A stretch of 13,507 bases of DNA from a virus (lineage: Duplodnaviria; Heunggongvirae; Uroviricota; Caudoviricetes). Location of the stretch: the IMG/VR virus record IMGVR_UViG_2534681663_000023, positions 1 to 13,507 of that record. One strand, 5' to 3'. The position numbers were made by a program, and so were the translations under genes. Every line of letters starts with the position of its first letter. The first letter of the stretch is position 1. Positions 1 to 13,507 of this stretch are shown here, piece by piece. Below the pieces are notes generated by a model, which saw only the letters and a program-made list of their open reading frames with translations, made no database searches and had not been told where the DNA came from.

Positions 1-213
1 TTAAATTGTGCGGACGGCTACTGAACCGCAGCCGGTATTGATGAGAGTGAAGCACTTGCCCTTTAGCTCAAAGATGTATGCGGTTGCGTCTTTCATGTCA
101 AGTAACAAAGACTTTGTTGGCAGTTCAGTGAGTATGGCTGCTGCCCCATCATCGTCAATTGAAATCGTATGTCCGACCTCAAGGGCGATCAAATTAGAAG
201 TTATTTTTTTCAT
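1..213 (-). CDS. Hypothetical small protein (70 aa), complete with stop at 1-3
   Basis: ORF track; ATG at 213-211 preceded on the minus strand by GGATGA about 8 nt upstream; stop TAA is the reverse complement of positions 1-3. No recognisable family. The overlapping plus-strand ORF 8-337 looks less protein-like. Confidence 0.35.
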   Translation of the reverse strand: MKKITSNLIALEVGHTISIDDDGAAAILTELPTKSLLLDMKDATAYIFELKGKCFTLINTGCGSVAVRTI

Positions 214-469
214 TTCATATCATCCAACTGAACACGTAAATACCTTGCAATACTACTACCTATTGTATCAATACGGAATACTTATGTATCAAATACAACT
301 TAGTTTTAAGTTCTTAAATGAGTTATTTTTTAGATAGTTGTCTATTAATGAAGCCTTTTGCGGTCAGTAAACCTATGTAAAAAAATAGATAAGTCTTTAC
401 AACACTAACCTTTGATGTAATATCAGTAAGCACTTACCAAATAAAATCAAAACACGCAGGTTGATAATT

Positions 470-859
470 ATGGCTACCAACGAAACAAAAGAAGCTAAAG
501 TAAGTCGCTACGCTGCTTACATTGACGCTTTAATCGCGATTTCTCCGAAAAGCCAGGCGACCATCGCGAAAGAAGCAGGCTATAAAAACCCTAACAATCT
601 TTCACTTATCAAGAGCGGCAAAATCCCGCTTCCGATCGACAAGGTCAGAGCGTTGGCTAAAGCATTGGATGCCGATTCGGTCCGATTGATGCTAATGGTG
701 CTGGAAGAGCGTCATCCAGAGCTGTTAGCGTTTTTTCGCGACGAAGGCACAGCCCCTCTGACTAAAGATGAAAAACTAGTTCTGGAAGCCTTCCGTCGAC
801 GTTTCGGTGACCAACGTGGTGCGTCGGAGCGGGTTGTTGAGGCAATCAAGTCGCTATGA
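470..859 (+). CDS. Putative HTH DNA-binding regulator (about 129 aa), convergent with the integrase
   Basis: ORF track 461-859 begins at TTG; the first ATG is at 470 with AGG about 9 nt upstream. The segment SQATIAKEAGYKNPNNLSLIKSGKIPLPIDKVRALAKAL reads like a helix-turn-helix of the XRE/phage regulator kind. Its 3' end overlaps the integrase 3' end by 6 bp. Confidence 0.5.
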   Translation: MATNETKEAKVSRYAAYIDALIAISPKSQATIAKEAGYKNPNNLSLIKSGKIPLPIDKVRALAKALDADSVRLMLMVLEERHPELLAFFRDEGTAPLTKDEKLVLEAFRRRFGDQRGASERVVEAIKSL

Positions 860-1957
860 GAAATTTACACGGATTAGCTCAGTAGCGAGTCGATCTCCCT
901 TGAACTTATGATCTATCTCCTCTAAATCCTGTTTCTCTACGATTGATGCGATGTACGCCGAAAAACTGTTTAAGGCGTCTCGCATCTCGTCTATATAATC
1001 GTGTCGATCGTATACTCGATCTATCCCCTCAAGACTGTGGTTCATAATTTTGCGGGATACCTCCTGACTTATGCCTAACGCGGGGAAGTAACTACGCGCA
1101 GTACGACGCAAATCTCGGGGAGTAAATGGCTCAAGCTCCATCAACTCTGGACGTTCTAAAATCCTTCTCAACGCCTGTGATATGGCCACCTTAGACATTG
1201 GCACATCCTCACCCTGTTTCTTGTTTGAAGGAACAAGCCACTGGCTGCCTTTTCCGTATTTGATCAGCTCCTCAACACATTTGCGCATTAGCGGGCTTAA
1301 TGGTAACGAGTGCTGGCGAGCCGATTTATTCCTCGTTCCTTGATTCCATAAATTATATTCGAGGTTGAATTCTGATCTTTTAGCTCGGAGCACTTCATCT
1401 GGTCGTCTGGCCGCTACAAGGCATAATCTGGCCGCCCACTTTGTACCCTCACATACGTTGAAGTAGTCCCATACATTCCAAAAGACCCAGACCTCTGCGT
1501 CGGTCAGTTTGCGCTCGCGCGGCGTGGGCTTCGCGCCACCGGCTACTCTGTTAAGCGACATATCGTTCAATGGGGATGTATCAATTAAGCCCTGAAATGC
1601 ACACCAACTGAGAAACTGCTTCATCAGCGAGAACACACGTCTGCCCTGGACGATCTTGCCCTCAAGTATTAATGGGTTCACCAGCTGGTTGACTAAAACC
1701 CTACTAATATCACTTACTTTTACTTCACAGATATGCGGCATTACATGTATCAAAATACAATGAACAGCTATTTCAGGTCGACGTCTCGTTATCAGCAAAG
1801 ATAAGCGAGTGAATAACATGAATGCGGAAGAAAACGACATATCACCGTCGAAATTGGTGGTCGACACTGCTGACAAACCGGAAGCGCGTTCGAGATACTC
1901 GATGGCTTCTCTAGAGGTGTTTTCTGCTGCGCGTGCTTTATCAAAAGTGTTTTTCAT
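854..1957 (-). CDS. int: Tyrosine-type site-specific integrase, P4-like family; true start uncertain
   Basis: C-terminal catalytic region matches the phage integrase pattern: ARRPDEVLRAKRSEFNL (box I Arg), KSARQHSLPLSP, RDLRRTARSY, NHSLEGIDRVYDRHDY (catalytic Tyr). The first ~75 residues of the ORF do not look like the usual P4-type arm-binding domain, so the real start may be internal (for example the Met of MPHICEVKV). Confidence 0.8.
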   Translation of the reverse strand: MKNTFDKARAAENTSREAIEYLERASGLSAVSTTNFDGDMSFSSAFMLFTRLSLLITRRRPEIAVHCILIHVMPHICEVKVSDISRVLVNQLVNPLILEGKIVQGRRVFSLMKQFLSWCAFQGLIDTSPLNDMSLNRVAGGAKPTPRERKLTDAEVWVFWNVWDYFNVCEGTKWAARLCLVAARRPDEVLRAKRSEFNLEYNLWNQGTRNKSARQHSLPLSPLMRKCVEELIKYGKGSQWLVPSNKKQGEDVPMSKVAISQALRRILERPELMELEPFTPRDLRRTARSYFPALGISQEVSRKIMNHSLEGIDRVYDRHDYIDEMRDALNSFSAYIASIVEKQDLEEIDHKFKGDRLATELIRVNFS

Positions 1958-2054
1958 AGTCCACTCACTGAGTGAAGCCTGTTTTTACTGTATTTATAAA
2001 CAGTATGTTAGGCCTAAGTTTTGTATGATCAACAGTAAAATAGACTGTTTTTGA

Positions 2055-2089
2055 AAATGATTCCATACCTTACAAGTATGGAATCATTT
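2055..2089. repeat. Perfect 14-bp inverted repeat AAATGATTCCATAC / GTATGGAATCATTT with 7-bp spacer, about 100 bp upstream of the integrase start
   Basis: Read directly from the sequence; both arms contain the recurring motif ATGATTCCATAC. Candidate operator or recombinase binding site. Confidence 0.7.
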
Positions 2090-2256
2090 ATATAGCTTAC
2101 GTAAATTCTGAATAAATTATGTAGACAAACCATCTTAAACGCTAAATAGTAAAAAGCGCCTAATAACGCCAACTTTGGAATGCCATCTGAGCCAGATTGA
2201 TGAGAATGATTTGTTAGAAGAAAAAGAATGATGAAGAAGATGACGATCGCTAAAGT

Positions 2257-2673
2257 TCAGCTAGAATGGAAACCTTCTGCGACTTCAGCGAAGTAGCTGA
2301 GCAACCTAGTATCTCTTGCTGGCATACGATCGTGAGCTGGAGTGACTAGCCCCATCAGCAAAAAACGCCCGCTATCCCACATGTGCTCGGTATAAACGAG
2401 ATAGTGGTTTGAGGTTCGGTTGTAGTTCTCTTGCCTTGCGTTCCAGGTAAGCTGGAAATGCAAATTGACGTGAATATGCTGGACATTAGCATCAACGGCG
2501 AACGGCGGGAAGTCAAATGGCGCATCTCGTCCAAGAAGATTAGATGGTGCGCCAGTTGATTTGTAAGTAATGAACTCGGATTTGAGCTGACTTTCTAGGT
2601 CAGGGTAAACGACAAAAGTGGGCTGAAAAAAATCATCCCACGTAACTTGACTGTATTCAGCCGTTAATGCCAT
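2257..2673 (-). CDS. YafO-like type II toxin (putative ribosome-dependent mRNA interferase), 138 aa
   Basis: Blocks recalled from E. coli YafO appear in the same order: ITYKSTG...LLGRDAPFDFP, HIHVNLH, HYLVY, ARD. The start ATG overlaps the stop of the upstream gene (ATGGCATTAA). Identification is from memory and needs a profile search. Confidence 0.5.
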   Translation of the reverse strand: MALTAEYSQVTWDDFFQPTFVVYPDLESQLKSEFITYKSTGAPSNLLGRDAPFDFPPFAVDANVQHIHVNLHFQLTWNARQENYNRTSNHYLVYTEHMWDSGRFLLMGLVTPAHDRMPARDTRLLSYFAEVAEGFHSS

Positions 2674-3212
2674 TTAGCCGCAGCCTTGTTGCCAGTCTCT
2701 AATAGATGGTTCATGGCTAAAAGGTTGACACCAGAGTCACGCACTACAGAAGTGCGTGTAATCTGATCAATCAGATTGAGATAGTTTTTGGTCGCAATAC
2801 TGACCATTTTAATAGCCTTAAAAAACGCAAACTCAACAGTGTTTTTTTCGTAAGACATGATGACGTCTTTTTCAGGTAACATCAAAACAAAAGATTCTGC
2901 GATACCGGCTACATGAATAGTTTGATTCTTAATTTCTTCCGCTACTTTGATAGCAGCAAAGAAGTCAGTGTCAGCATAATGAGCAAGTTCAGCGCGGCTT
3001 GAACGCAGTTCTTTAGCCAATTCATTGAGAGCAGCTGTAAGATCACTGATGTCGGTTTTGTTGACTCTAGCGCCCATCTCATAAACCCGTTCTACAATCG
3101 TAGGCTGACACGCAACCGCTTTGGGTTGCGGCTGGATACTGGCAAGAACCAGTGCCACTGCTGCCTGCAAATGCTGGATTTTAAATTTCACGATAGACTC
3201 CATAATCGTCAT
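2664..3212 (-). CDS. Hypothetical protein (182 aa), translationally coupled upstream partner of the YafO-like toxin; possible atypical antitoxin
   Basis: ORF track; 8-nt overlap with the toxin start; no recognisable domain by eye; much larger than YafN or Phd-type antitoxins. Confidence 0.45.
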   Translation of the reverse strand: MTIMESIVKFKIQHLQAAVALVLASIQPQPKAVACQPTIVERVYEMGARVNKTDISDLTAALNELAKELRSSRAELAHYADTDFFAAIKVAEEIKNQTIHVAGIAESFVLMLPEKDVIMSYEKNTVEFAFFKAIKMVSIATKNYLNLIDQITRTSVVRDSGVNLLAMNHLLETGNKAAAKWH

Positions 3213-3293
3213 TTCTCGACGAAGCGTAGCATTCTACTACTGAACTTAACTATAAGCTAAAAAAAGTTGGTTGCATATGCGACTTGATAGCAA

Positions 3294-3320
3294 AAAGGGG
3301 CCGAAGCCCCTTTGGATTTT
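3294..3320. terminator. Bidirectional rho-independent terminator hairpin (GGGGC-CGAA-GCCCC) flanked by A/T runs
   Basis: On the minus strand the stem is followed by TTTTTG, which would terminate the tRNA-Asn transcript before the toxin module; on the plus strand it is followed by TTTGGATTTTG. Confidence 0.5.
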
Positions 3321-3387
3321 GCGCTGAAAAAAGTGTTGCTACGATGCTTAGAAGCAATGGTTAAAAAACGTCTGCCGTGTCTATCAC

Positions 3388-3462
3388 AGCGCTGAACGGT
3401 CTGGCGACATTTGCGGAGTCTTTCGTTCGGACGGTGGTGGCGAATCCAAACCGTTCAGCGCT
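3388..3462. repeat. Perfect 13-bp inverted repeat AGCGCTGAACGGT / ACCGTTCAGCGCT enclosing 49 bp, immediately 3' of the tRNA
   Basis: Read directly from the sequence. Lies between the tRNA 3' end (3467) and the terminator; could be a processing or structural element, or a small repeat element. Confidence 0.6.
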
Positions 3463-3466
3463 ATGT

Positions 3467-3541
3467 TGGCGATGGTGGGTGGACTCGAACCACCGACCAG
3501 TTGATTAACAGTCAACCGCTCTACCACTGAGCTACACCATC
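3467..3541 (-). tRNA. tRNA-Asn (anticodon GTT), 75 nt with encoded CCA
   Basis: Manual fold of the minus strand: acceptor GATGGTG/CACCATC, D-arm GCTC-AGTGGTA-GAGC, anticodon stem GTTGA/TCAAC with loop CTGTTAA (U33, GTT, A37), variable TGGTC, T-arm GGTGG-TTCGAGT-CCACC, discriminator G, CCA. Confidence 0.85.
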
Positions 3542-3704
3542 ATTTTCGCGGCGGTACTAGCTTATGGACAACCAGGCAGCCAGAAACTTTCCCGTAACTT
3601 GCACTTTACGTTAGTGCCAGACGAGGTATGTGGCTCGCTCATATGAGCGAAGATCTCGAATCTTTCTCGGTGGTTGATTGCCGTTAGATTCTTCGATCTT
3701 ATTG

Positions 3705-3719
3705 GATGTATGGAATCAT
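3705..3719. repeat. 15-bp direct repeat GATGTATGGAATCAT, copy 1 of 2 (second copy at 4725-4739)
   Basis: Exact 15-bp identity read from the sequence. Its reverse complement ATGATTCCATACATC carries the recurring motif. Copy 1 sits within the local palindrome ATGTATG-GAAT-CATACAT. Confidence 0.7.
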
Positions 3720-3790
3720 ACATGTTGTGAAGCCAGGGGCAATAAAGGCAACAATGTTTTCACTAGAGGGTTAATTAATCCTGCTTTCAC

Positions 3791-3900
3791 AACGTTGAGA
3801 TCACTGAACCGATTAATGTTCAACCCAACATATTGATCAGTCGCTACAGCTATGTGGAATCGCCTGTATGATTTTAAGAAAAATCAGTGATCTCAACGTT
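3791..3900. repeat. Perfect 17-bp inverted repeat AACGTTGAGATCACTGA / TCAGTGATCTCAACGTT separated by 76 bp, in an ORF-free region
   Basis: Read directly from the sequence; arms at 3791-3807 and 3884-3900. Candidate structured RNA or miniature inverted-repeat element. Confidence 0.65.
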
Positions 3901-4266
3901 ATGTGCTGACTAACCAAGTCAGCCGGGTTACGTCGCCGCTTTTAACCCAAGTATAAACGACATAAGTAATGGAAATGACGTAACAGAATGGACGGTCAGC
4001 TGAAACCGGGATGGGGGAATGGAATGATGAAACCAACCGCCCATTCTGTTACTTCATTGAATGGGGCATGGATGGTGCAATATGCCCTATTCTGCGTTCT
4101 GCAATCACACTCGCTCAGTGTGTCCCATTTTGGTGACGAGGCTGGAAACTGACCTCGCTGGTGTTTGGCTTCTTAGGCTACTGCCAGGTATGCATCTTCG
4201 TTTGCAGTTATATTTAACGTTCAAACAGTCGCATCTCAACGAAAACAAAGTGATCTTATACATATT

Positions 4267-4290
4267 AGATAAGTAAGTAAATACTTATCT
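4267..4290. terminator. Possible weak hairpin (AGATAAGTA / TACTTATCT, 6-nt loop) at the end of the small-ORF operon
   Basis: 9-bp AT-rich stem overlapping the stop of the 101-aa ORF; no strong U-run, so terminator function is uncertain. Confidence 0.25.
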
Positions 4291-4590
4291 ATCTGTGATG
4301 CGTTTAGTTGCTATCTTTTTGATCAGGCTCCCCTTTTGTTCCGAAGTTCTCATGATGATGGCGGTAAAACGCTTCGCTTGAATAGTGATAGTTTCGTTTT
4401 CCTTGAGTTCGCCGTAATGCGTCTCTAACAGGGACCCCAGACGCCACAGACCGTCGTCTATGCGTTTATGGCTGGCGAATCTGATCAGCAGTAGCTTTAC
4501 GATTAACTGACCAATGTAAAAGGCAAATCCGAAGCCGGCCGCCACAAGGTAGGTTGCCAGCCACCAGTCGAAGGAAGTCAAATTGCTCAT
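4285..4590 (-). CDS. Hypothetical small membrane protein (101 aa), last gene of the coupled small-ORF chain
   Basis: ORF track; N-terminal hydrophobic stretch WWLATYLVAAGFGFAFYIGQLIVKLLLI; its ATG overlaps the stop of the upstream 50-aa ORF (AAATGAGC). Confidence 0.45.
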   Translation of the reverse strand: MSNLTSFDWWLATYLVAAGFGFAFYIGQLIVKLLLIRFASHKRIDDGLWRLGSLLETHYGELKENETITIQAKRFTAIIMRTSEQKGSLIKKIATKRITDR

Positions 4591-4739
4591 TTTCGCACTC
4601 CCGTCTCGTGAACAACCCGATACACACGCTTACCGACACGAAGTGTTTTGGTTTGCAGTTCCTGCTGGACCAGGGCGCGGCAGATTGCGAGGCCGAGGCC
4701 CACGCCACCAGTAAAAGATAAAATGATGTATGGAATCAT
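4587..4739 (-). CDS. Small ORF (50 aa, below track cut-off): MIPYIILSFTGGVGLGLAICRALVQQELQTKTLRVGKRVYRVVHETGVRK; small membrane protein or relic of a sensor-kinase 3' end
   Basis: Translated by hand. Start ATG overlaps the stop of the 70-aa ORF (TGATG); stop overlaps the start of the 101-aa ORF. The GC-rich segment encodes GVGLGLAICRALV, reminiscent of the histidine-kinase G2 box. The start codon lies inside repeat copy 2. Confidence 0.35.
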   Translation of the reverse strand: MIPYIILSFTGGVGLGLAICRALVQQELQTKTLRVGKRVYRVVHETGVRK

Positions 4740-4951
4740 CAGTGCGCCCCCGCCTCAGTCAATTGCTGCAACAACAAATAACCTTTTTCAGTCAGTTGAT
4801 AGTTCTCAATACATCCCTTTGGAGAAACGTTGGCGACAAGATTCATGCGCTCCAGTTTGGCTCTGGTCTTCGGCTTCCAGTTGGCGTAGAACTCCTTCCA
4901 CTTGCTGATTTCACGCAGGGTTTCCTTCTCTCGTTTACTTAACATGCTCAT
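4739..4951 (-). CDS. Hypothetical small soluble protein (70 aa), possibly winged-helix-like
   Basis: ORF track; overlaps the 3' end of the 59-aa ORF and is coupled to the 50-aa ORF. Charged, helical-looking sequence (LSKREKETLREI ... LTEKGYLLLQQL). Confidence 0.45.
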   Translation of the reverse strand: MSMLSKREKETLREISKWKEFYANWKPKTRAKLERMNLVANVSPKGCIENYQLTEKGYLLLQQLTEAGAH

Positions 4952-5114
4952 CCTTAATCTCCTTCAGTGTGTCCGTGATATCTACTATGCGATAAATACG
5001 ACCTCGCCTTTGCATGACACCGGCTTTTACGTAATCGTGGATACAGCTGGACATAACCAGACTTCCGATAACAATGCCGACGACTAAAAATACAAACATC
5101 CAGCCGAGCATCAT
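4935..5114 (-). CDS. Small ORF (59 aa, below track cut-off): MMLGWMFVFLVVGIVIGSLVMSSCIHDYVKAGVMQRRGRIYRIVDITDTLKEIKDEHVK; predicted single-pass membrane peptide
   Basis: Translated by hand. Its ATG (5114-5112) overlaps the TGA (5113-5111) that ends the reconstructed native ligase frame (ATGA overlap). Confidence 0.4.
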   Translation of the reverse strand: MMLGWMFVFLVVGIVIGSLVMSSCIHDYVKAGVMQRRGRIYRIVDITDTLKEIKDEHVK

Positions 5115-5156
5115 TCTTTATCTCCAATACGATCTTCGGTATCTCGAAGACATTTA
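5111..5156 (-). other. Displaced native 3' end of the ligase gene (encodes ...CLRDTEDRLGDKE-stop), separated from the gene body by the transposon
   Basis: Joining the sequence right of the right-hand ATTTA to the sequence left of the left-hand ATTTA keeps the ligase frame open for 13 more codons and ends at TGA 5113-5111. Confidence 0.55.
5152..5156. repeat. Target-site duplication ATTTA, left copy (right copy at 10797-10801)
   Basis: Identical 5-bp sequence immediately outside each terminal inverted repeat; 5-bp duplications are typical of Tn3-family transposition. Confidence 0.8.
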
Positions 5157-5194
5157 GGGGAGCCCGCAGAATTCGGAAAAAATCGTACGCTAAG
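5157..5194 (+). repeat. Transposon terminal inverted repeat, tnpA-proximal (38 bp); contains the tnpA stop codon
   Basis: GGGG...ACGCTAAG architecture typical of Tn3-family ends; tnpA stop at 5190-5192 lies within it. Confidence 0.85.
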
Positions 5195-8156
5195 GTTTTC
5201 CGGGCATCCGTAAGGGCCGAAACTTCCCGTCTTCCAGTCTGCGGCTCTGCCGCCAGACGTAATCGCCGGTTAGGTTGATGTGCTCCCAGCCCAGCGGCGA
5301 CAGGAATTGCAGCAGCTCGCCGTCCACCGGCTTGCCGGCCTCGACCAACCCCTGGGTGGCGCGTTCCAGGTACACCGTGTTCCACAGCACGATAGCCGCC
5401 GTCACCAGGTTGAGGCCGCTGGCCCGGTAGCGCTGCTGCTCGAAGCTCCGATCCCTGATTTCCCCAAGGCGGTTGAAGAACACCGCCCTGGCCAGCGAGT
5501 TGCGCGCCTCACCTTTGTTCAGGCCGGCATGCACGCGGCGGCGCAGTTCAACACTTTGCAGCCAGTCCAGGATGAACAGCGTGCGCTCGATCCGGCCCAG
5601 CTCGCGCAGGGCCACGGCCAGTCCGTTCTGGCGCGGGTAGCTGCCGAGCTTGCGCAGCATCAGCGAGGCGGTGACGGTGCCCTGCTTGATCGAGCTGGCC
5701 AGGCGCAGGATGTCGTCCCAGTGGGCACGCACGTGCTTGATGTTCAGGGTGCCGCCGATCAGCGGGCGCAACGTCGGGTAGGCTTGCACGCCCTGCGGCA
5801 CGTACAGCTTGGTTTCGCCGAGGTCGCGGATGCGCGGCGCGAAGCGGAAGCCTAGCAGGTGCATCAGGGCAAAGACGTGATCGGTGAAGCCGGCCGTGTC
5901 GGTGTAGTGCTCCTCGATCCGCAGGTCGGACTCGTGGTACAGCAGGCCGTCGAGCACATAGGTGGAATCGCGGACGCCGACATTCACCACGCGGGTGCTG
6001 AACGGCGCGTACTGGTCGGAGATATGGGTATAGAACAGCCGTCCCGGCTCGCTACCGTACTTCGGGTTGACGTGCCCGGTGCTCTCGCCCCGGCCACCCG
6101 CGCGGAAGCGCTGGCCATCGGAGGATGAGGTCGTGCCGTCGCCCCAGTGGGCGGCAAAGGCGTGGCGATACTGGTGGTTGACCAGCTCGGCCAAGGCCGC
6201 CGAATAGGTTTCGTCGCGGATGTGCCAGGCTTGCAGCCAGGACAGCTTGGCGTAGGTCAGGCCGGGGCTCGACTCGGCCATCTTGGTCAGCCCGAGGTTG
6301 ATCGCATCACCGAGGATTGCGGACAGCAGCAACGTCCTGTCTTTGGCCTCGGCCCCGTCCTTCAAGTGGGTGAAGTGGCGGCTGAAGCCCGTCCAGTCGT
6401 CCACGTCCATCAGCAGTTCGGTGATCTTGATGCGCGGCAGTAACTGGCTGGTTTGGTCGATCAGCGCCTGCGCCCGATCCGGCACCGCCGCATCCAGCGG
6501 GGGGATTTTCAGCCCTGACTCGGTGAGGATGGCATCGGGCAGCTCGTTGTCCTTGGCCAGGCGGGTGACGGTGGCCAACTGCTCGTCCAGCAGCTGCAAA
6601 CGCTCTTCCAGGTACTGGTCGCTGTTCGGGTTGATCGCCAGGGGCAGGGCCTGCTCGCGCTTGAGTGCGGCGAACTTCTCGGCCGGCAGCAGGTAGTCGT
6701 CGAAGTCGCGGAACTGCCGCGAGCCCTTGACCCAGATGTCGCCGGAGCGCAGGGCGTTCTTCAGCTCGGACAGGGCGCAGATTTCGTAGAATTTCCGGTC
6801 GAGGCCTTCCGGGGTGATCACCAGCGGCTTCCAGCGCGGCTTGATGAAGGCCGTGGGTGCATCGGCCGGCACCTTGCGCAGGTTGTCGGCGTTCATCTCA
6901 CGCAGGGTCTGCACGGCTGCCAGCACGCCTTGCGCGGCCGGCGCGGCGCGCAGTTCCAGCACCTCCAGCAAGGCCGGCGTGTAACGGCGCAGGGTGGCGA
7001 AGTTCTCGCCGACCAGGTGCAGGTGGTCGAAGCCTTCCGGCCGGGCCAGCAGCTCGGCCTCGCTGACGCTCTCGGTGAACTCGTCCCAGGGAATCACCGC
7101 CTCGATGGCGGCATAGGGGTCGCTGCCGCTTTCCTTCGCTTCCAGCAGCGCCTGGCCGATCCTGGAGTACAGGCGCACCTTGTCGTTGATCGCCTTGCCC
7201 TGCTTCTGGAACTGCTGCTGATGCTTGTGCTTCGCGCCGCTGAACAGCTTGACCAGGATGCGGTCATGCAGATCGACCAGCTCATCGATCACGGTCGCGG
7301 TGCTCTCCAGCACCACGGCGGCCAGGGTCGCGTAGCGGCGCTGCGGCTCGAACTTACCGAGGGCTTTGGGCGTCATCTGCCCACCCTCGCGGGCCAGCTT
7401 GAGCAGGCGGTTCTGGTGGATGTGCCGGCCCAGGCCTTCGGGCAAGTCCACCAACTGAAATGTCTTCAGCCGCTCGATGTGTTCCAGCATGTGCCGAGAG
7501 TTGGGTTTCAGCGGTGCCTGGCGCAGCCAGGTCAACCAGGTGATGCTGCTGCCGGCCTTGAGCTTCAACAGCTCGTCCAGCTTGGCCCGATGCGAGTCCG
7601 TGAGTGGTTCGACCAGGGCGCGGTAGACCCGCCGATTGGCTCGCGCAATGGCTTCCGAGCAGGCCCGGTCAATCACGCTCAGCGCCGGCAGGATGCGTCG
7701 TTTCTGCCGTAGGCTCTCCAGGGCCTGACCGGCCAGCAGCAAGCCTTTGTCGGTCTGCTGGGCCAGCTCGGTTAGCTCGCGCACCAGGGCGCGGAAGTCG
7801 GACAGGCCGAACGGGGCCAGTTGCAGGTAGGTGCGCAGTTCCTGGGCATGCTCGCGACGGGTCACGTCGCGCTCGCCGTACTTTGCCCAGCTCGCCGGCT
7901 CGGCCTGGACTTGCTTCGCCACCCACAGGATGACCGGCTCGGGCAGCTCGCTGTCGGTTCCCAGCGCGTAACCGGGGTAGCGCAGCAGGCAGAGCTGCAC
8001 GGCGAAGCCGAGGCGGTTGGCGTCGCCGCGTCGCTGGCGGATCAGCGACAGGTCGGAGTCGTTGAAGGTGTAGTAGCGGATCAGGTCATCCTGGCTTTCC
8101 GGCAGCGCAAGCAGGGTGTCCCGCTCCGTGGCCGAGAGGATCAAGCGACGCGGCAT
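5190..8156 (-). CDS. tnpA: Tn3-family transposase TnpA (988 aa)
   Basis: Length and sequence ([44 protein letters not shown]...) match Tn21/Tn501-type TnpA as recalled; very GC-rich relative to its surroundings; terminates inside the terminal repeat. Confidence 0.95.
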
Positions 8157-8159
8157 GTG

Positions 8160-8720
8160 TCAGTCGTCCGTGCGGAGGTACTGGTAGAGGGTTTCCCGGC
8201 TGATGTTGAACTCGCGGGCAAGCTGCGCCTTGGGCTCGCCGGCCGTCGCTCGCTGCCGCAGGGTAGCAGCCTGCTCATCGGACAGGGCTTTCTTGCGGCC
8301 CCGGTACGCGCCACGCTGCTTGGCCAAGGCGATGCCCTCACGCTGCCGCTCGCGGATCAGGGCGCGCTCGAACTCAGCGAAGGCCCCCATCACCGACAGC
8401 ATCAGGTTGGCCATCGGCGAGTCCTCGCCAGTGAACACCAGGCCCTCCTTCAGGAACTCGATGCGCACGCCGCGCTGAGTCAGCTTCTGTACCAAGCGAC
8501 GCAGGTCATCGAGGTTGCGGGCCAGCCGATCCATGCTGTGCACCACCACTGTATCGCCTTCGCGGACGAAGCTCAGCAGCGCTTCGAGCTGGGGGCGCTG
8601 GGTGTCCTTGCCCGATGCCTTGTCGGTGAACACCTTGCTCACCTGGGTTTGTTCCAGCTGGCGTTCCGGGTTCTGGTCAAAGCTGCTGACCCGGACGTAG
8701 CCGATGCGGTGCCCCTGCAC
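8160..8720 (-). CDS. tnpR: Serine resolvase TnpR (186 aa)
   Basis: N-terminal serine-recombinase motif (IGYVRVSSFDQNPERQ), C-terminal HTH (ISRETLYQYLR); sits directly upstream of tnpA in the same orientation, as in the Tn21 subgroup. Confidence 0.95.
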   Translation of the reverse strand: MQGHRIGYVRVSSFDQNPERQLEQTQVSKVFTDKASGKDTQRPQLEALLSFVREGDTVVVHSMDRLARNLDDLRRLVQKLTQRGVRIEFLKEGLVFTGEDSPMANLMLSVMGAFAEFERALIRERQREGIALAKQRGAYRGRKKALSDEQAATLRQRATAGEPKAQLAREFNISRETLYQYLRTDD

Positions 8721-8724
8721 GATG

Positions 8725-8900
8725 TCTCCTTGGTTGAAGGCGGCTTAAGTGCACTTTCTGTTCCGTTGTGCCTCAAAGCCCATTTCTGTCAGGCTGAAAT
8801 CTATAACCTTCGCGGGCATGTGTCAAAAAATGGGAAAGCAGACTCTATTCTGACGAAGCGGCGCGGCCCTGCCTGACATCAAGTTAGGGTATAGCCTAGA
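8725..8900. promoter_or_regulatory. Putative res (resolution) site and tnpR promoter region
   Basis: Lies immediately upstream of tnpR and contains several TGTCA/TGACA half-site-like repeats (TGTCAGGCTGAAAT..., CATGTGTCA, CTGCCTGACATC). Exact subsite boundaries not determined. Confidence 0.5.
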
Positions 8901-9029
8901 TTGACATGCGCGATGCAACCCTTAACTTGCTTGCACCTATCGTTTCCATGCTAGCTTTATCGTAACGCTCAAGAAATTGGGCTTAATGCCGAAAACAATA
9001 AAATAAAACAGCCAACCCTTGAGGTTCTT

Positions 9030-10607
9030 ATGCGCCAGAATTTACCAGTGACGGGTCGAAACTTAGAACTCCCAAAAGATGCCAATATTCTTTCGACTAC
9101 CTCCCCTCAAAGCCATATCACGTACGTTAATCCTGACTTCATTAAAATCAGTGGTTTCACTGAGGAAGAACTATTAGGCCAGCCTCACAACATCGTAAGA
9201 CACCCAGATATGCCGCCTGCTGCATTTGAGCATATGTGGAGTACATTAAAATCTGGCCGCTCATGGATGGGGCTAGTAAAAAATCGCTGTAAAAATGGCG
9301 ACCACTATTGGGTAAGTGCTTATGTAACGCCAATAGCTAAGAATGGTTCGATTGTTGAATACCAGTCTGTAAGGACCAAGCCTGAACCTGAGCAGGTTTT
9401 GGCTGCGGAAAAATTATATGCTCAATTGAGAAGCGGGAAGGCCGCGAGGCCGAAATTGGCTGCTAGCTTTTCCGTGAAAATACTCTTGCTCATATGGGGT
9501 AGTATTATATCAAGCGCAATGGCTGCCGGCATGCTTACTGATACATCAATAAGCAGCTTATTGTTAGCCACTTTAATGTCAGGAAGCTTAAGCTCTGTTA
9601 GTGTTTTGGCTATTCTCTCTCCTCTTGGAAGACTGGTTGAAAGAGCCAGGAATATTTCCAATAACCCATTAAGTCAATCCCTCTACACTGGGCGCACCGA
9701 TGAGTTTGGCCAAATAGAGTTTGCTTTACGAATGATGCAAGCTGAAACAGGCGCCATAGTAGGTCGCATAGGTGATGCATCAAATCGGCTTAGCGAACAC
9801 ACCCGAGGCCTACTAAAGGATATTGAGTCAAGCAATGTACTTACAGTTGAGCAGCAGGCAGAGACAGATCAAATAGCAACGGCAGTAAACCAAATGGTGG
9901 CAAGCATTCAAGAGGTTGCGAGCAATGCACAGCATGCTGCAGATGCGGCCGGAAGAGCAGACACTGAGACGGCATCTGGCCAGCGTCTGGTAGCCCACAC
10001 AAGCCAGTCAATCACTGCCCTTGAAGGTGAAATTAGGCAAGCCACTCAGGTTATTCATGAGCTTGAAGGTCAAAGTAACGAGATATCAAAAGTTCTTGAC
10101 GTTATACGAGGGATCGCCGAGCAAACGAATTTGTTGGCACTCAACGCAGCAATTGAGGCCGCGCGTGCTGGTGAGCAGGGGCGTGGTTTTGCTGTTGTCG
10201 CCGATGAGGTTCGCAGTCTTGCTGCTCGCACACAGCAATCGACAACGGATATTCAAAGCATGATCAGCGCTCTACAAGAGCGAGCGCAATCCGCTGTTAC
10301 AGTCATGGAGCAAAGTAGTCGGCAAGCGCACACGAGTGTAGCTCACGCAGAGGAAGCAGCTACAGCTCTTGATGGAATTGGCCAACGCGTTAACGAAATT
10401 ACCGACATGAACGCGCAAATAGCGACTGCGGTCGAGCAGCAGGGAGCAGTAAGTGAAGACATAAACCGCAGTATTATCAATATACGCGATGCTGCTGATA
10501 CCAATGTACAGACCGGGCAGAATAATTTGCAAAGTGCGAAATCTGTCGCTCAGTTAACTAGCGCTCTGAGCGAACTGGCAAAACAGTTTTGGGAAAAACG
10601 AGGATAA
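9030..10607 (+). CDS. aer: Aer-like aerotaxis receptor (N-terminal PAS, membrane hairpin, methyl-accepting chemotaxis signalling domain), 525 aa; transposon passenger
   Basis: N-terminus closely resembles E. coli Aer PAS ([68 protein letters not shown]); hydrophobic hairpin near residues 150-195; conserved signalling core ([32 protein letters not shown]). Confidence 0.85.
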
Positions 10608-10626
10608 CGCTTTTCAGTATCTCGAC

Positions 10627-10661
10627 AGGGATAACTTACTTTACCATCGGTTATCCCTTTT
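10627..10661 (+). terminator. Rho-independent terminator after the chemoreceptor gene
   Basis: Hairpin AGGGATAAC-(14 nt)-GTTATCCCT followed by TTTT, about 20 bp after the stop codon. Confidence 0.5.
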
Positions 10662-10740
10662 AGCCGCACAAATTTTAGCCATGGCTTTTCAGGAAGTCAG
10701 GGCTATCAGAATGGCCTTAGAAAGCCTAGTCAAAGAGCTG

Positions 10741-12078
10741 TCACGAGAACACCGTTAGCTTAGCGTACGATTTTTTCCGAATTCTGCGGTTCCCCCATTT
10801 AGGCCACTTCAGACGTGGATGACGCAAGCTACCATCTGGCGTTTTCTCATGGCAGTGAACCTCAACGATGCGTCCACGATACTTCTCCTGATTGTTCCAG
10901 ATTTCATCCAGGTATTTATGCTTGATACCGCTGGCACGAACGATGACGCCGTTCTCCAGACGAATCACTATCTTGCCTAGCGTATGCGCAAATCCAGAAT
11001 CCGGATCGCCAGGCTCGAAGTCGATGATTTCACCGTCTTCTGAATCCTCGTCTTTCAGCTTCCACCAGCTGCGGGTACGTTTGAACTCGTAAACTGAATC
11101 CGGATCTTTGCCCATCTCTCCCTCTTCATTCTCGTCCAGTCGCTTCATGAAACGTTCGATGAAATCTTCGTGGCTATGGATGATGTAGAACGGATGAAGG
11201 TGGATATCTTGCGCATAATCTTCCACGCAAGTGTTGCGGAACAACGCCACCAGCATAGCCAGGCGCTCTTTCAGCTTCATACCGGTCTTCAGGTACTCTT
11301 TGCTTTTTGCTTGAGCACGCCACTCCGGTAAGAAGAAATCGAAAATGTGGTAAACGGCACCAATGGCTTTCACGTTCTTCTTACGAAGCGCCGACACTGA
11401 CTGGTTGAATGTACCTGCAGTGCCCTCTCCATCGAAGAAGATGTGATTGAAGCCGGAGAGTCTGCCCCGCTCCAGCATGGCTGGTTTAAGGTGATCGAGT
11501 GACGTAATCGGATTGCCGGTGCGCGTCAGGAAATTGACCTCACCCTCGTCCACGATGACTTCGCAGATAACCCGGAGACCATCGAGTTTGAGACTGCCGA
11601 TCATTGGCCACTTGGCCTTTGGATTTGGTTTAAATGGGTATTTGTCGCCTTTCTCCTTGTACGGAGACGCCAGCTGTACCTCAAACTTCGGAATTGGGTT
11701 TTCGAACACCTTGTTGCACAGGCTGATGCCGACACCGGCTTTCGGATCTTTCAGCAGGAAGCGACGAAACACGTCCTGCCCGTCAGCGCACATCGAGGCA
11801 ACGAGTGATTCGACAGCAGCAATAGCGATGTTCCCGGTCAGTTCGCGCGCTGCCAGCTTCTCCAGCAGATCTACTACCTTCTGGTCGCTGGGTACGGAAG
11901 TATCGAGTGGCTCGGCCACTTTGTACTTCTTCACACCGAATCGAATGAATGGATTGAGCATTAGCGAGACCATGCTCTGTTCAAATTCATCCAGATTGGC
12001 CAGCGCCTCTTTCTTGGCGTTGGTTCCCATCGTTTTAATAGCATCCAGCTTGTGCTTTAGGGCGATCAGTTTTTCCAT
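10741..12078 (-). CDS. T4-type ATP-dependent DNA ligase; 3' end interrupted by the transposon (last 18 codons of this ORF are read from the ATTTA duplication and terminal repeat)
   Basis: Nucleotidyltransferase motifs in order: I KLDGLR, III FFDGEG, IIIa YHIFDF, IV EGEMGKD, V WWKLK, VI LRHPRL. N-terminal region parallels T4 ligase as recalled (LTGNIAIAAV, ISLCNKVFENPIP, LASPYKEKG). GGAGG lies about 10 nt upstream of the ATG. Confidence 0.85.
   Translation of the reverse strand: MEKLIALKHKLDAIKTMGTNAKKEALANLDEFEQSMVSLMLNPFIRFGVKKYKVAEPLDTSVPSDQKVVDLLEKLAARELTGNIAIAAVESLVASMCADGQDVFRRFLLKDPKAGVGISLCNKVFENPIPKFEVQLASPYKEKGDKYPFKPNPKAKWPMIGSLKLDGLRVICEVIVDEGEVNFLTRTGNPITSLDHLKPAMLERGRLSGFNHIFFDGEGTAGTFNQSVSALRKKNVKAIGAVYHIFDFFLPEWRAQAKSKEYLKTGMKLKERLAMLVALFRNTCVEDYAQDIHLHPFYIIHSHEDFIERFMKRLDENEEGEMGKDPDSVYEFKRTRSWWKLKDEDSEDGEIIDFEPGDPDSGFAHTLGKIVIRLENGVIVRASGIKHKYLDEIWNNQEKYRGRIVEVHCHEKTPDGSLRHPRLKWPKWGNRRIRKKSYAKLTVFS
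10759..10796 (-). repeat. Transposon terminal inverted repeat, passenger-proximal (38 bp)
   Basis: Reverse complement matches the tnpA-proximal repeat at 35 of 38 positions; followed immediately by ATTTA. Confidence 0.85.
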
Positions 12079-12112
12079 TAGTGTTTAACCTCCATCGGTC
12101 GCTCGGGAGTTT

Positions 12113-12589
12113 TCATGTGTTTTCTTTGGTTGCTTCTTCAATGAGTGCCGCGTACACGTCAGTGACCGGCGCCAGTGAATCGGTGGGCTTGGTTTCGGAT
12201 TTAGCAGGTTCTGTTTTCTTCGTGCGATGAATAAGACTGTCAATTGTCGCGGTGTTTCGCTTCCGGGGGAGCGTTCTGGCATGGTCGTTTTGCTCTTCCA
12301 CTTCTTTGATAAGTGAAGACATATCGATGAAGTAGAGCTGTTCGTCTTTGCGGATCTCTTCGACCATCATTTTCAGTGCCTGACATTTACCAGCAGCAAT
12401 AGCCGCAGCGCAGGACTGGAACGATGTAGCCGGGAGACGTTTTTCTTTATAGGCGAGGATCGTGTGTTGGCAGACTGTATAGCTGCAATGAGCCTCATGG
12501 CCGTTGAGCTTCACTTCCGGGCAGCGCAGCGAATAACCGTTGTTTCCGGAGATAGACGGGATTTTCGACAAATCTGTTCTTGTGGACAT
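12113..12589 (-). CDS. Hypothetical Cys/His-rich protein (158 aa), possible zinc-binding; directly upstream of the ligase
   Basis: ORF track; cluster RCPEVKLNGHEAHCSYTVCQH...CAAAIAAGKC; 34-bp gap to the ligase start, same strand. No family recognised. Confidence 0.45.
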   Translation of the reverse strand: MSTRTDLSKIPSISGNNGYSLRCPEVKLNGHEAHCSYTVCQHTILAYKEKRLPATSFQSCAAAIAAGKCQALKMMVEEIRKDEQLYFIDMSSLIKEVEEQNDHARTLPRKRNTATIDSLIHRTKKTEPAKSETKPTDSLAPVTDVYAALIEEATKENT

Positions 12590-12636
12590 GCTTCTAACCG
12601 TAATCTTGTACTTACTTATTAATCGCAGTTTAAAGA

Positions 12637-12653
12637 AGCCCCACGAGGGGGCT
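12637..12653. other. Short GC hairpin (AGCCCC-ACGAG-GGGGCT) between the upstream gene and the 158-aa gene
   Basis: Read from the sequence; no convincing U-run on the minus strand, so it may be an attenuator or structural element rather than a terminator. Confidence 0.25.
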
Positions 12654-12670
12654 AAATGTTTTATCGAGGC

Positions 12671-13069
12671 TTACCAGGTCGCCCAGCCAGTCATTTTGTC
12701 CTGAGCAGCTTCGAACCGGTATGGGTCCAGTAAATCGTTGGTACGATGAACGGCGTAGGATTTGGCTTCTTGTTTAATCATGGGTAATTCGTTGGCCAGA
12801 CGAGCCACTTGCCCTGCAAAACTGGCGAGTACTCCGTCACATGCCTGACCCGCGTCGACAATGATGCGCACCAGGTCTAAGTCGCTGCGGCACATATCGC
12901 AGATAATGCCGTATTCCACCTCACGAATGCGCTCAACGGCTTTTTTGATATCGCCACTGACCACCAATTCCAGCAAACCAGGTGGAGTTGTCAGATCTGT
13001 TACGCGCTCGGTAACTTCAGACTGTTCGACAATACTCAGGAACGCCGCGATGGACGGGTCATCCGCCAC
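12671..13069 (-). CDS. Hypothetical protein, probably the C-terminal part of a larger gene truncated by the IS3-family insertion
   Basis: The annotated start is GTG with no clear RBS; the frame stays open for 19 more codons upstream (ERFEDIVDATLRTLKVRAG...) right up to the IS boundary at 13127. No family recognised. Confidence 0.4.
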   Translation of the reverse strand: MADDPSIAAFLSIVEQSEVTERVTDLTTPPGLLELVVSGDIKKAVERIREVEYGIICDMCRSDLDLVRIIVDAGQACDGVLASFAGQVARLANELPMIKQEAKSYAVHRTNDLLDPYRFEAAQDKMTGWATW

Positions 13070-13126
13070 ACCAGCTCTGACTTTGAGCGTGCGAAGAGTT
13101 GCGTCGACAATATCCTCAAACCGTTC

Positions 13127-13507
13127 TGAACCGCCCCGGAAATCCTGGAGACTAAACTCCCTGAGAAAGAGGTAAACAGGATGACTAAAAATACTCGTTT
13201 TTCCCCCGAAGTCCGTCAGCGGGCGATTCGTATGGTTCTGGAAAGTCAGGATGAATATGACTCACAGTGGGCGGCAATTTGTTCCATTGCCCCAAAGATT
13301 GGCTGTACGCCGGAGACTCTGCGTGTCTGGGTTCGCCAGCATGAGCGGGATACCGGGGGCGGTGATGGTGGGCTCACCAGCGCTGAACGTCAGCGTCTGA
13401 AAGAGCTGGAACGTGAAAATCGTGAACTGCGCCGCAGTAACGATATCCTTCGCCAGGCTTCCGCTTATTTTGCGAAGGCGGAGTTCGACCGCCTCTGGAA
13501 AAAATGA
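13127..13507 (+). mobile_element. IS3-family insertion sequence (IS629/IS1203-like), left end; continues beyond the window
   Basis: Terminal sequence TGAACCGCCCCGGAAATCCTGGAG... followed about 55 bp later by an OrfA-type gene; matches the IS629-like left end as recalled. Confidence 0.8.
13181..13507 (+). CDS. IS3-family transposase OrfA (108 aa, HTH plus leucine zipper)
   Basis: [23 protein letters not shown]...[34 protein letters not shown] is the typical IS3 OrfA; ends at an A6 run before TGA, consistent with the programmed -1 frameshift site into OrfB, which lies outside the window. Confidence 0.9.

Follow-up and report, generated by a model that had tools for sequence, protein, structure and literature searches.

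Small membrane proteins with established roles are known from bacterial chromosomes and from phages. MgrB and SafA, which act with PhoQ, are chromosomally encoded single-pass regulators whose working parts lie in the periplasm, and phage phi29 encodes p16.7 (~130 amino acids, aa) and p1, N-terminally anchored membrane proteins that organise replication. The closest described relative of the gene analysed here is SSU5_047 of Salmonella phage SSU5, which is catalogued as an uncharacterised phage-plasmid protein of the family PHROG 6302. Its orthologue lies in a 13,507-nucleotide (nt) stretch of viral DNA (positions 1 to 13,507 of IMG/VR record IMGVR_UViG_2534681663_000023, Caudoviricetes; hereafter the window) as an open reading frame (ORF) of 50 aa on the minus strand (4587..4739, ATG start). 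An earlier reading of the letters of the window alone (the original prediction) had singled it out because part of its translation resembles the G2 box in the ATP lid of sensor histidine kinases, and had offered two explanations: a relic of a kinase put to use as a small gene, or likeness by chance.

The comparison of this locus with its relatives favours the second explanation and dismisses the first. The kinase-like string is specific to one lineage, the gene is conserved and independent, and no meaningful nucleotide match to a kinase was found in the E. coli genomes, plasmids and metagenome records searched. The likeness to a G2 box arose by coincidence in one lineage, within a membrane helix rich in glycine, and is no remnant of a kinase. 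We hold with high confidence that the ORF encodes a genuine small membrane protein and is not a kinase relic, and a small membrane protein of the SSU5-type backbone, with a coincidental G2 likeness, is very likely the best explanation overall.

A conserved gene of SSU5-type phage-plasmids

Positions 3500-5158 of the window are 98-100% identical to many Escherichia coli plasmids of ~105-115 kb and 90% identical to phage SSU5, and on this sequence identity the window is assigned to an E. coli phage-plasmid of the SSU5 / pHCM2 type. Such phage-plasmids are common in clinical Enterobacteriaceae, and blastn searches with the ORF found the SSU5 type in 246 of 5,426 complete E. coli genomes. The ORF is annotated as a coding sequence in SSU5 (SSU5_047, YP_006906679.1), in pJN2-26 (pJN226_0096) and in Cyrano (CYRAN_38). 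On the minus strand of these annotated relatives, the gene for an ATP-dependent DNA ligase is followed by genes for proteins of 59, 70, 50 and 96-101 aa and then by tRNA-Asn, and the order ligase / 59 / 70 / 50 / 101 aa is preserved among SSU5, pJN2-26, Cyrano and the IMG/VR loci.

The translation of the ORF, one of 95 in the window with at least 40 aa, is MIPYIILSFTGGVGLGLAICRALVQQELQTKTLRVGKRVYRVVHETGVRK. It matches the PHROG 6302 profile from end to end (E value 1.3e-32, residues 1-50 on profile positions 1-50 of 50) and shares 80% amino-acid identity with SSU5_047. A search of 5.8 billion proteins returned 21 clusters of homologues, 48-85 aa long, 14 of them exactly 50 aa and none with a Pfam domain.

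We fetched 85 related loci, which comprise 46 distinct nucleotide versions with identities down to 69%. The check proposed with the original prediction, whether homologous loci keep a 50-aa ORF, has a clear answer: 83 of the 85 encode exactly 50 aa, one encodes 53 aa and one has no start. The frame of the ORF is the only one open in all 46 distinct sequences, the other five averaging 1.4-3.7 stops. Variable columns number 27, 17 and 40 at codon positions 1, 2 and 3, and the ratio of nonsynonymous to synonymous substitution rates (dN/dS, pairwise Nei-Gojobori) is 0.21 for the whole gene, with 0.37 in codons 1-24 and 0.105 in codons 25-50. In 83 of 83 loci the start overlaps the upstream gene, and in 82 of 82 the stop forms the ATGA overlap with the downstream gene. 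The ORF is a genuine conserved gene under purifying selection.

The locus without a start is L082 (IMG/VR 2841023034_000004, 2501-2620), where MIPYI is missing and the match covers residues 11-50 only. The other frames and the opposite strand, which hold overlapping ORFs of 80, 55 and 43 aa, were considered as genes and rejected, being closed in relatives.

Across the family alignment, M1, P3, Y4, I5, G12, K31, G36, R38, Y40, R41, V43, H44, E45 and T46 are invariant, and conservation is concentrated at the N-terminal MIPYI, at G12 and in the basic tail GKRVYRVVHET. The tail (codons 25-50, 4590..4667, minus strand; family consensus QELKTKTLRIGKRVYRVVHETG) is under the strongest constraint in the gene, and its R-Y-R-V..T core recurs in the 59-aa protein and in distant members that have a single copy.

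The description of the ORF in the original prediction, as a GC-rich frame coupled to both neighbours, carrying a G2-box-like string and opening with a hydrophobic helix, holds for the window. Guanine-plus-cytosine (GC) content is 61.3% at 4600-4710, 68.9% at 4650-4710 and 76% over codons 11-24, against 48% in the block of four small genes and 44.5% in the backbone. Upstream, the TGA of the 70-aa gene shares one base with the ATG of the ORF (TGATG, base 4739); downstream, the TGA of the ORF overlaps the next ATG (ATGA, 4587-4590). A putative Shine-Dalgarno-like site for the ORF, GAGGCGGGGG (4747..4756, minus strand), can be read 8-17 nt 5' of the ATG, within the 3' end of the 70-aa gene. The GC-rich patch gave no signal of RNA structure (fold z -0.44) and no terminator, and promoter-like sites there were at chance level.

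A predicted membrane helix with a basic tail

Codons 2-24 (4668..4736, minus strand) are predicted from Kyte-Doolittle hydropathy, charge and AlphaFold to form a transmembrane helix with a G12xxxG16 spacing. The best 19-residue Kyte-Doolittle mean is 1.83 in the window protein (residues 2-20) and 1.84-2.28 in its relatives, all above the membrane threshold of ~1.6 over ~19 residues. Because the hydrophobic stretch spans residues 2-20, the G2-like string (codons 12-24, 4668..4706) lies inside the helix and does not follow it.

In all members checked, the N-terminal flank carries a charge of 0 to +1 and the C-terminal flank +3 to +8; the sequence of the helix varies, but its hydrophobicity and the charge asymmetry are maintained. 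Under the positive-inside rule, the asymmetry predicts an N-out/C-in orientation. The product is therefore predicted to be a single-pass inner-membrane protein with its first 3-4 residues at the periplasmic face and a basic tail of 26 residues in the cytoplasm. With the family alignment, AlphaFold returned one continuous helix over residues 3-46, with predicted local distance difference test (pLDDT) values of 79-89 over residues 1-30. G12 is invariant across the superfamily, and G16 is kept in both the 50-aa and the 59-aa clade (in the latter as G13/G17).

The G2-like string is confined to one lineage

The string GVGLGLAICRALV (residues 12-24) has as its SSU5 counterpart GVALGFSICRDLV, and GVGLGLAICRAL of the window protein corresponds to GVALGFSICRDL in SSU5. 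Over residues 11-24, the window lineage has GGVGLGLAICRALV, SSU5 GGVALGFSICRDLV, the Klebsiella elements GGVALGFIICHDLI, the Cyrano type GGFLIGFGICRDLI and the L084 type VGASLGFIAHRHLV. A simple G2 pattern matches only the window allele, to which G14 and L17 are also confined. The commonest E. coli allele is the Cyrano type; of 246 records, 211 have only 60-80% identity to the window. Distant members have GGFVIGAG, VGFAIGAL, GGVLGSAY or IGATVASS at this position.

The alleles are collinear and gapless in DNA. Four replacements of the window lineage, A14G, F17L, S18A and D22A, produce the string through the codon changes GCC->GGC, TTC->CTC, AGT->GCA and GAT->GCC. Third-position GC in the stretch is also high in alleles that have no G2-like string (0.79 in SSU5, 0.86 in L039), which argues that the GC patch was not imported along with the string. 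GC-richness at first and second positions reflects the content of Gly, Ala, Leu and Arg.

Comparison with histidine kinases

Profile searches placed the protein near kinases at levels below their cut-offs. The Pfam model HATPase_c (PF02518) aligned residues 10-36 with profile positions 70-100 of 111 at an E value of 0.01 and 16.7 bits (cut-off 26.4), and NCBIfam kinase models (KdpD, RppB, TorS and others) gave E values of 0.015-0.11, all below threshold. In the PDB, KdpD (6lgq_C) shares 11 consecutive identical residues, GVGLGLAICRA, at an E value of 0.25. The 95 ORFs of the window offer many motifs that might have been singled out, and matches at these levels are the chance expectation for a membrane helix rich in Gly, Leu and Ala. 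Only 4 of 22 family members matched HATPase_c, all of the window type, and the other 18 gave no match even at E <= 10. The family profile had no match in the PDB at E <= 10. None of the 17 HMMER matches among 1.84 billion representative proteins (E <= 0.001) was a kinase; they comprise 16 ORFs of 32-78 aa and one repeat protein of 238 aa. The latter (P0092), probably a translated repeat or else a match by chance, holds three copies of AKTLEVGTRVYRLVRAF and matches the tail motif weakly (E 6.5e-4).

The nucleotide search that had been proposed, for a match to sensor-kinase genes, gave nothing significant in the E. coli genomes or in the plasmid database PLSDB. All 247 blastn matches to the ORF in the 5,426 complete E. 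coli genomes (E <= 10) are on plasmids and none is chromosomal. Over the 13 codons shared with kdpD of E. coli K-12, 26 of 39 bases agree and third positions agree at 1 of 13. Gene conversion from the host kdpD is rejected on these grounds: 11 of 11 residues are identical, third positions agree at 1 of 13 and chromosomal blastn matches number zero. Among PLSDB plasmids, the sole kinase matches are 24-35 nt long (E 0.9-3) and fall in the G2-box DNA of high-GC organisms, examples being a Sphingobium PAS kinase (26/29 nt) and a Streptomyces kinase-like gene (29/35 nt). Such matches are expected when GC-preferred codons spell the same residues. Counted over 29 nt, the window agrees with the Sphingobium string at 26 positions, SSU5 at 22, the Klebsiella elements at 19 and the Cyrano type at 18; the similarity to this string declines gradually from allele to allele, with no jump. 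A scan of 241 million metagenome records for the exact 27-mer that spans codons 14-22 returned five copies, all in the 50-aa ORF, and no donor kinase.

The N, G1 (DxGxG) and F boxes are absent. The protein has 50 aa, with only MIPYIILSF before the string, as against ~110-150 residues in the kinase domain, and the Bergerat alpha/beta fold does not appear in the AlphaFold model (one helix over residues 3-46, mean pLDDT 76). The upstream gene encodes a separate 70-aa protein in another frame, and there is no in-frame coding sequence upstream. None of the features that define HATPase_c, as far as they can be tested, is present in the 50-aa protein. A G2-box look-alike of this kind has little significance for kinase biology. 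It does carry a caution: membrane helices rich in Gly, Leu and Ala can mimic a G2 box to the extent of 11 identical residues and can yield HATPase_c matches below threshold.

Proposed role and alternative explanations

In the explanation that we favour, translational coupling within an operon running ligase -> 59 aa -> 70 aa -> 50 aa -> 101 aa would produce the 50-aa protein. The helix would anchor it and assemble it with the downstream 101-aa protein, possibly also with the 59-aa protein, the G12xxxG16 face perhaps serving as a packing surface, and the conserved tail GKRVYRVVHET would serve as the working surface, facing the cytoplasm from the inner membrane. Strict coupling to the gene of a downstream membrane protein suggests co-production and action as a complex. 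This mechanism, with helix assembly among membrane partners and the tail as working surface, is offered tentatively; we judge it possible and somewhat doubtful. The four lineage replacements would have fallen on a Gly/Leu-rich helix that already read G-x-x-L-G-x-x-I-C-R-x-L-V, giving the G2 likeness. Candidate roles, given the place of the gene behind the ligase gene in the replication region, are membrane-based support of replication or plasmid maintenance and an early function directed at the host, such as takeover or exclusion.

Several observations weigh against this explanation. The patch at 4662-4701 is the most divergent 27-nt window relative to SSU5 in the 874-nt four-gene block, with 8-9 differences against a mean of ~3 (0.9% of windows reach 8). 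Of its changes, 6-8 are derived in the window lineage when polarised with outgroups; they are mostly toward G/C, one being the synonymous TGT->TGC, and no allele intermediate between the window and SSU5 types was seen among the 85 loci. The patch may thus be a clustered event, either an exchange with an unsampled allele or a micro-conversion, rather than a set of independent point changes. Its divergence is also compatible with fast evolution of the helix, where dN/dS is highest in the gene. The tail helix of the AlphaFold model has low confidence (pLDDT 66-67), and the loss of G16 in the most distant members, P0083 and P0089, weakens the idea of a GxxxG face. Scores from hhalign, used below to relate the 50-aa and 59-aa families, can be inflated for short membrane proteins with an effective sequence number (Neff) of 1.7. 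In some plasmids, among them L001 (NZ_CP101235.1, locus 4088-4240), the NCBI pipeline has not annotated the ORF, and our literature search found no paper on these genes.

The patch is also an argument for a micro-conversion, by which a tract of 27-40 nt from the GC-rich G2-box DNA of a sensor kinase overwrote codons ~14-22 in the window lineage, through template switching or patch repair across microhomology. The derived, mostly G/C-directed changes, the missing intermediates and the Sphingobium and Streptomyces matches, the former including third positions, would speak for such an event. If true, it would be a rare visible case of a tiny patch passing between genes and making a protein motif. 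Yet the kinase matches are at chance level, the identity to the Sphingobium string falls stepwise from allele to allele, the GC-rich third positions of SSU5 and L039 are older than the string, and none of the metagenome records with the exact 27-mer is a kinase. The helix, moreover, evolves fast throughout the family (dN/dS 0.37), and the coincidence of patch and string is partly circular, because the string drew attention through being derived. We regard micro-conversion as quite improbable. An older origin, in which the whole of PHROG 6302 descends from the C-terminal ATP lid (G2 box, helix and beta-hairpin) of a histidine kinase, could appeal to the family consensus G-x-x-L-G-x-x-I-C-R-x-L-V and to the K/R-rich stretch with a G-K turn that comes after it, which loosely recalls the order G2 box, helix, GxG hairpin. 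Against this, the family-wide searches above returned no kinase from the PDB or the representative proteins and no HATPase_c match for 18 of 22 members, in the distant members and in the 59-aa paralogue this segment is an ordinary membrane helix devoid of a G2 pattern, and the N, G1 and F boxes and any in-frame upstream coding are missing from a segment hydrophobic enough to span a membrane. Descent of the family from a kinase is extremely unlikely.

Two further readings do without kinases. An N-terminal hydrophobic helix and a basic tail within 50 aa is the build of many small toxic or lysis peptides of phages and plasmids, and the phage-plasmid location, near a YafO toxin gene, would suit a stand-alone membrane-damaging peptide such as a Hok-like type I toxin, a holin/antiholin-like factor or a 'kil' division peptide. 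The gene, however, sits mid-operon behind the ligase gene in the replication region, in neither an antisense-RNA cassette nor a lysis module; its promoter-like sites are at chance level, with no terminator or RNA structure; the strongest constraint is on the cytoplasmic tail, not on the helix; and no toxin match was found with PADLOC or Pfam. A toxic peptide is unlikely, though less so than any kinase origin. That the ORF is a non-coding spacer open by accident is suggested by its 50 codons and by the plasmids in which it is unannotated, and is contradicted by the retention of exactly 50 codons in alleles of as little as 69-73% nucleotide identity, by the dN/dS of 0.21 and third-position-dominated variation, by the closure of the five other frames and by the conserved start and stop overlaps; we give a spurious ORF next to no credence.

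Neighbouring genes and the ancestral unit

The 50-aa protein has a paralogue in the same operon. The 59-aa ORF (PHROG 4381; 4935..5114, minus strand) has an N-terminal helix with G13xxxG17 and the tail RGRIYRIVDIT. The 50-aa and 59-aa families align in hhalign with a probability of 94.5% (E 7.6e-8), gapless from 1-50 to 2-51, with coinciding invariants G12/G13, G16/G17, R38/R39, Y40/Y41, R41/R42 and T46/T47, and are bridged by P0080, P0081, P0083 and P0089 from an exhaustive search. The two genes are paralogues and probably arose as tandem duplicates. Between them, the 70-aa gene (PHROG 4054; 4739..4951, minus strand) encodes a soluble basic protein, possibly winged-helix-like. Its homologue in phage Cyrano is labelled 'putative transcriptional regulator', its only PDB match is a weak, non-significant MarR-like one (2rdp_A, E 0.31), and the gene is absent from the distant elements L087 and L089.

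The constant downstream partner, with its ATGA overlap in 82 of 82 loci, is the gene for a 101-aa protein (PHROG 4507; 4285..4590, minus strand) that is predicted to be membrane-anchored. AlphaFold predicts for it a long helix at the N-terminus (6-59), a beta-hairpin (67-80) and a helix at the C-terminus, at low confidence (mean pLDDT 70.9, predicted template modelling score 0.31), and no Pfam match was found for it. Searches of all four small proteins in Pfam, NCBIfam and the defence systems of PADLOC gave nothing significant. The RefSeq name of the 101-aa protein in SSU5 and many other records is 'C-type natriuretic protein', for which we found neither support nor, in the library searched, a phage paper using it; the name looks like a propagated misannotation.

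Distant elements (110-kb contigs; L087, L089) carry one small gene, overlapping the ligase stop, followed by a gene for a membrane protein of 83-84 aa that is homologous to the 101-aa protein (hhalign E 2.6e-5). As these elements hold a single copy together with the homologue, the conserved and ancestral unit is a small 'RVYRVV' protein plus a membrane protein of 84-101 aa. In the SSU5 clade, duplication has given two copies of the small gene, and the 70-aa gene now stands between the copies. The pair might be an undescribed membrane module, for example one that tethers replication or maintenance to the membrane, and it constitutes a conserved, uncharacterised pair of membrane genes in the replication region of SSU5-type elements.

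Ten of the fetched IMG/VR loci have an 82-aa chimera in which the first codons of the ligase gene (MEKLIALKHKL...) are fused to the end of the 70-aa gene (...LLEQLIEAGEYS). The deletion removes most of the ligase gene and the 59-aa gene and leaves the 50-aa ORF and its downstream partner intact.

On the other side of the operon, by tRNA-Asn, lies a variable accessory region (854-1957, 2257-2673, 2664-3212 and 3467-3541, all minus strand). In the window and in E. coli relatives, its genes encode a tyrosine integrase, a YafO-family toxin and an overlapping 182-aa protein, probably the antitoxin. At the same place beside tRNA-Asn, SSU5 has genes annotated as porphyrin biosynthesis, which are replaced in the window element.

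A transposon beside the small genes

A complete Tn3-family transposon of 5,640 bp occupies 5157-10796 of the window, with 38-bp inverted repeats (5157-5194, 10759-10796), a 5-bp target duplication, ATTTA (5152-5156, 10797-10801), and a GC content of 63-69% versus 44-50% in the backbone. It encodes a TnpA of 988 aa (5190..8156, minus strand), TnpR (8160..8720, minus strand) and a PAS-HAMP-MCP chemoreceptor-like protein (9030..10607, plus strand), and we take it to resemble Tn1722/Tn1721 in gene content and inverted-repeat sequence. The insertion lies in the 3' end of the gene for the ATP-dependent DNA ligase, now at 10741-12078 (minus strand) and 5114-5156. The ligase ORF reads 445 aa, the last 18 codons coming from the transposon end, against 440 aa in intact relatives, and its original last 13 codons are stranded at ~5117-5156. 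The four small genes are thereby parted from the ligase gene, and the co-oriented tnpA stands directly upstream of them. Their expression in the window element may therefore depend on read-through from the transposon.

Comparison with known systems

How does the 50-aa protein compare with systems already described? Its resemblance to PHROG 6302 and SSU5_047 is complete in extent and setting, the match running over the full length and the gene occupying the same site between the 70-aa and 101-aa genes behind the ligase gene; the window allele differs in the four helix replacements that create the G2-like string. With HATPase_c it shares GVGLGLAICRA, identical over 11 residues to the G2 box of E. 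coli KdpD (residues 844-856), but it is a 50-aa protein that has none of the other boxes and no Bergerat fold, the string is part of a membrane helix, and it is not conserved in the family. The 59-aa protein of PHROG 4381 has the same architecture, with the invariant G, the GxxxG spacing and an R-x-Y-R-[VI]-[VI]..T core, but the two are only 18% identical, and the 59-aa protein extends further at its acidic C-terminus (LKEIKDEHVK) and has a helix of higher hydrophobicity (2.57 versus 1.83). Likeness to UPF0154 (PF03672), weakly matched by 12 of 22 members (best E 4.5e-4), comes through a G-x-A-L-G-F-x-I membrane helix and concerns the anchor only; the tails are unrelated, the window's allele has no match, and we claim no membership.

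Other parallels are ones of build and setting. Compared with MgrB and SafA, the protein would fall in a common size class (~50 aa), with one helix and with protein contacts expected in or at the membrane. There is, however, no sequence relation, the conserved part here is cytoplasmic, and likeness to a kinase motif is no sign of kinase binding. A Hok-like type I toxin cassette is stand-alone, with a promoter of its own and an antisense RNA that overlaps it, whereas the 50-aa ORF overlaps both neighbours in an operon of four small genes. Like p16.7 and p1 of phi29, it may be a small anchored protein with a basic cytoplasmic part, encoded beside replication genes; the likeness is an analogy only, with no detectable homology and with a protein much shorter than p16.7.

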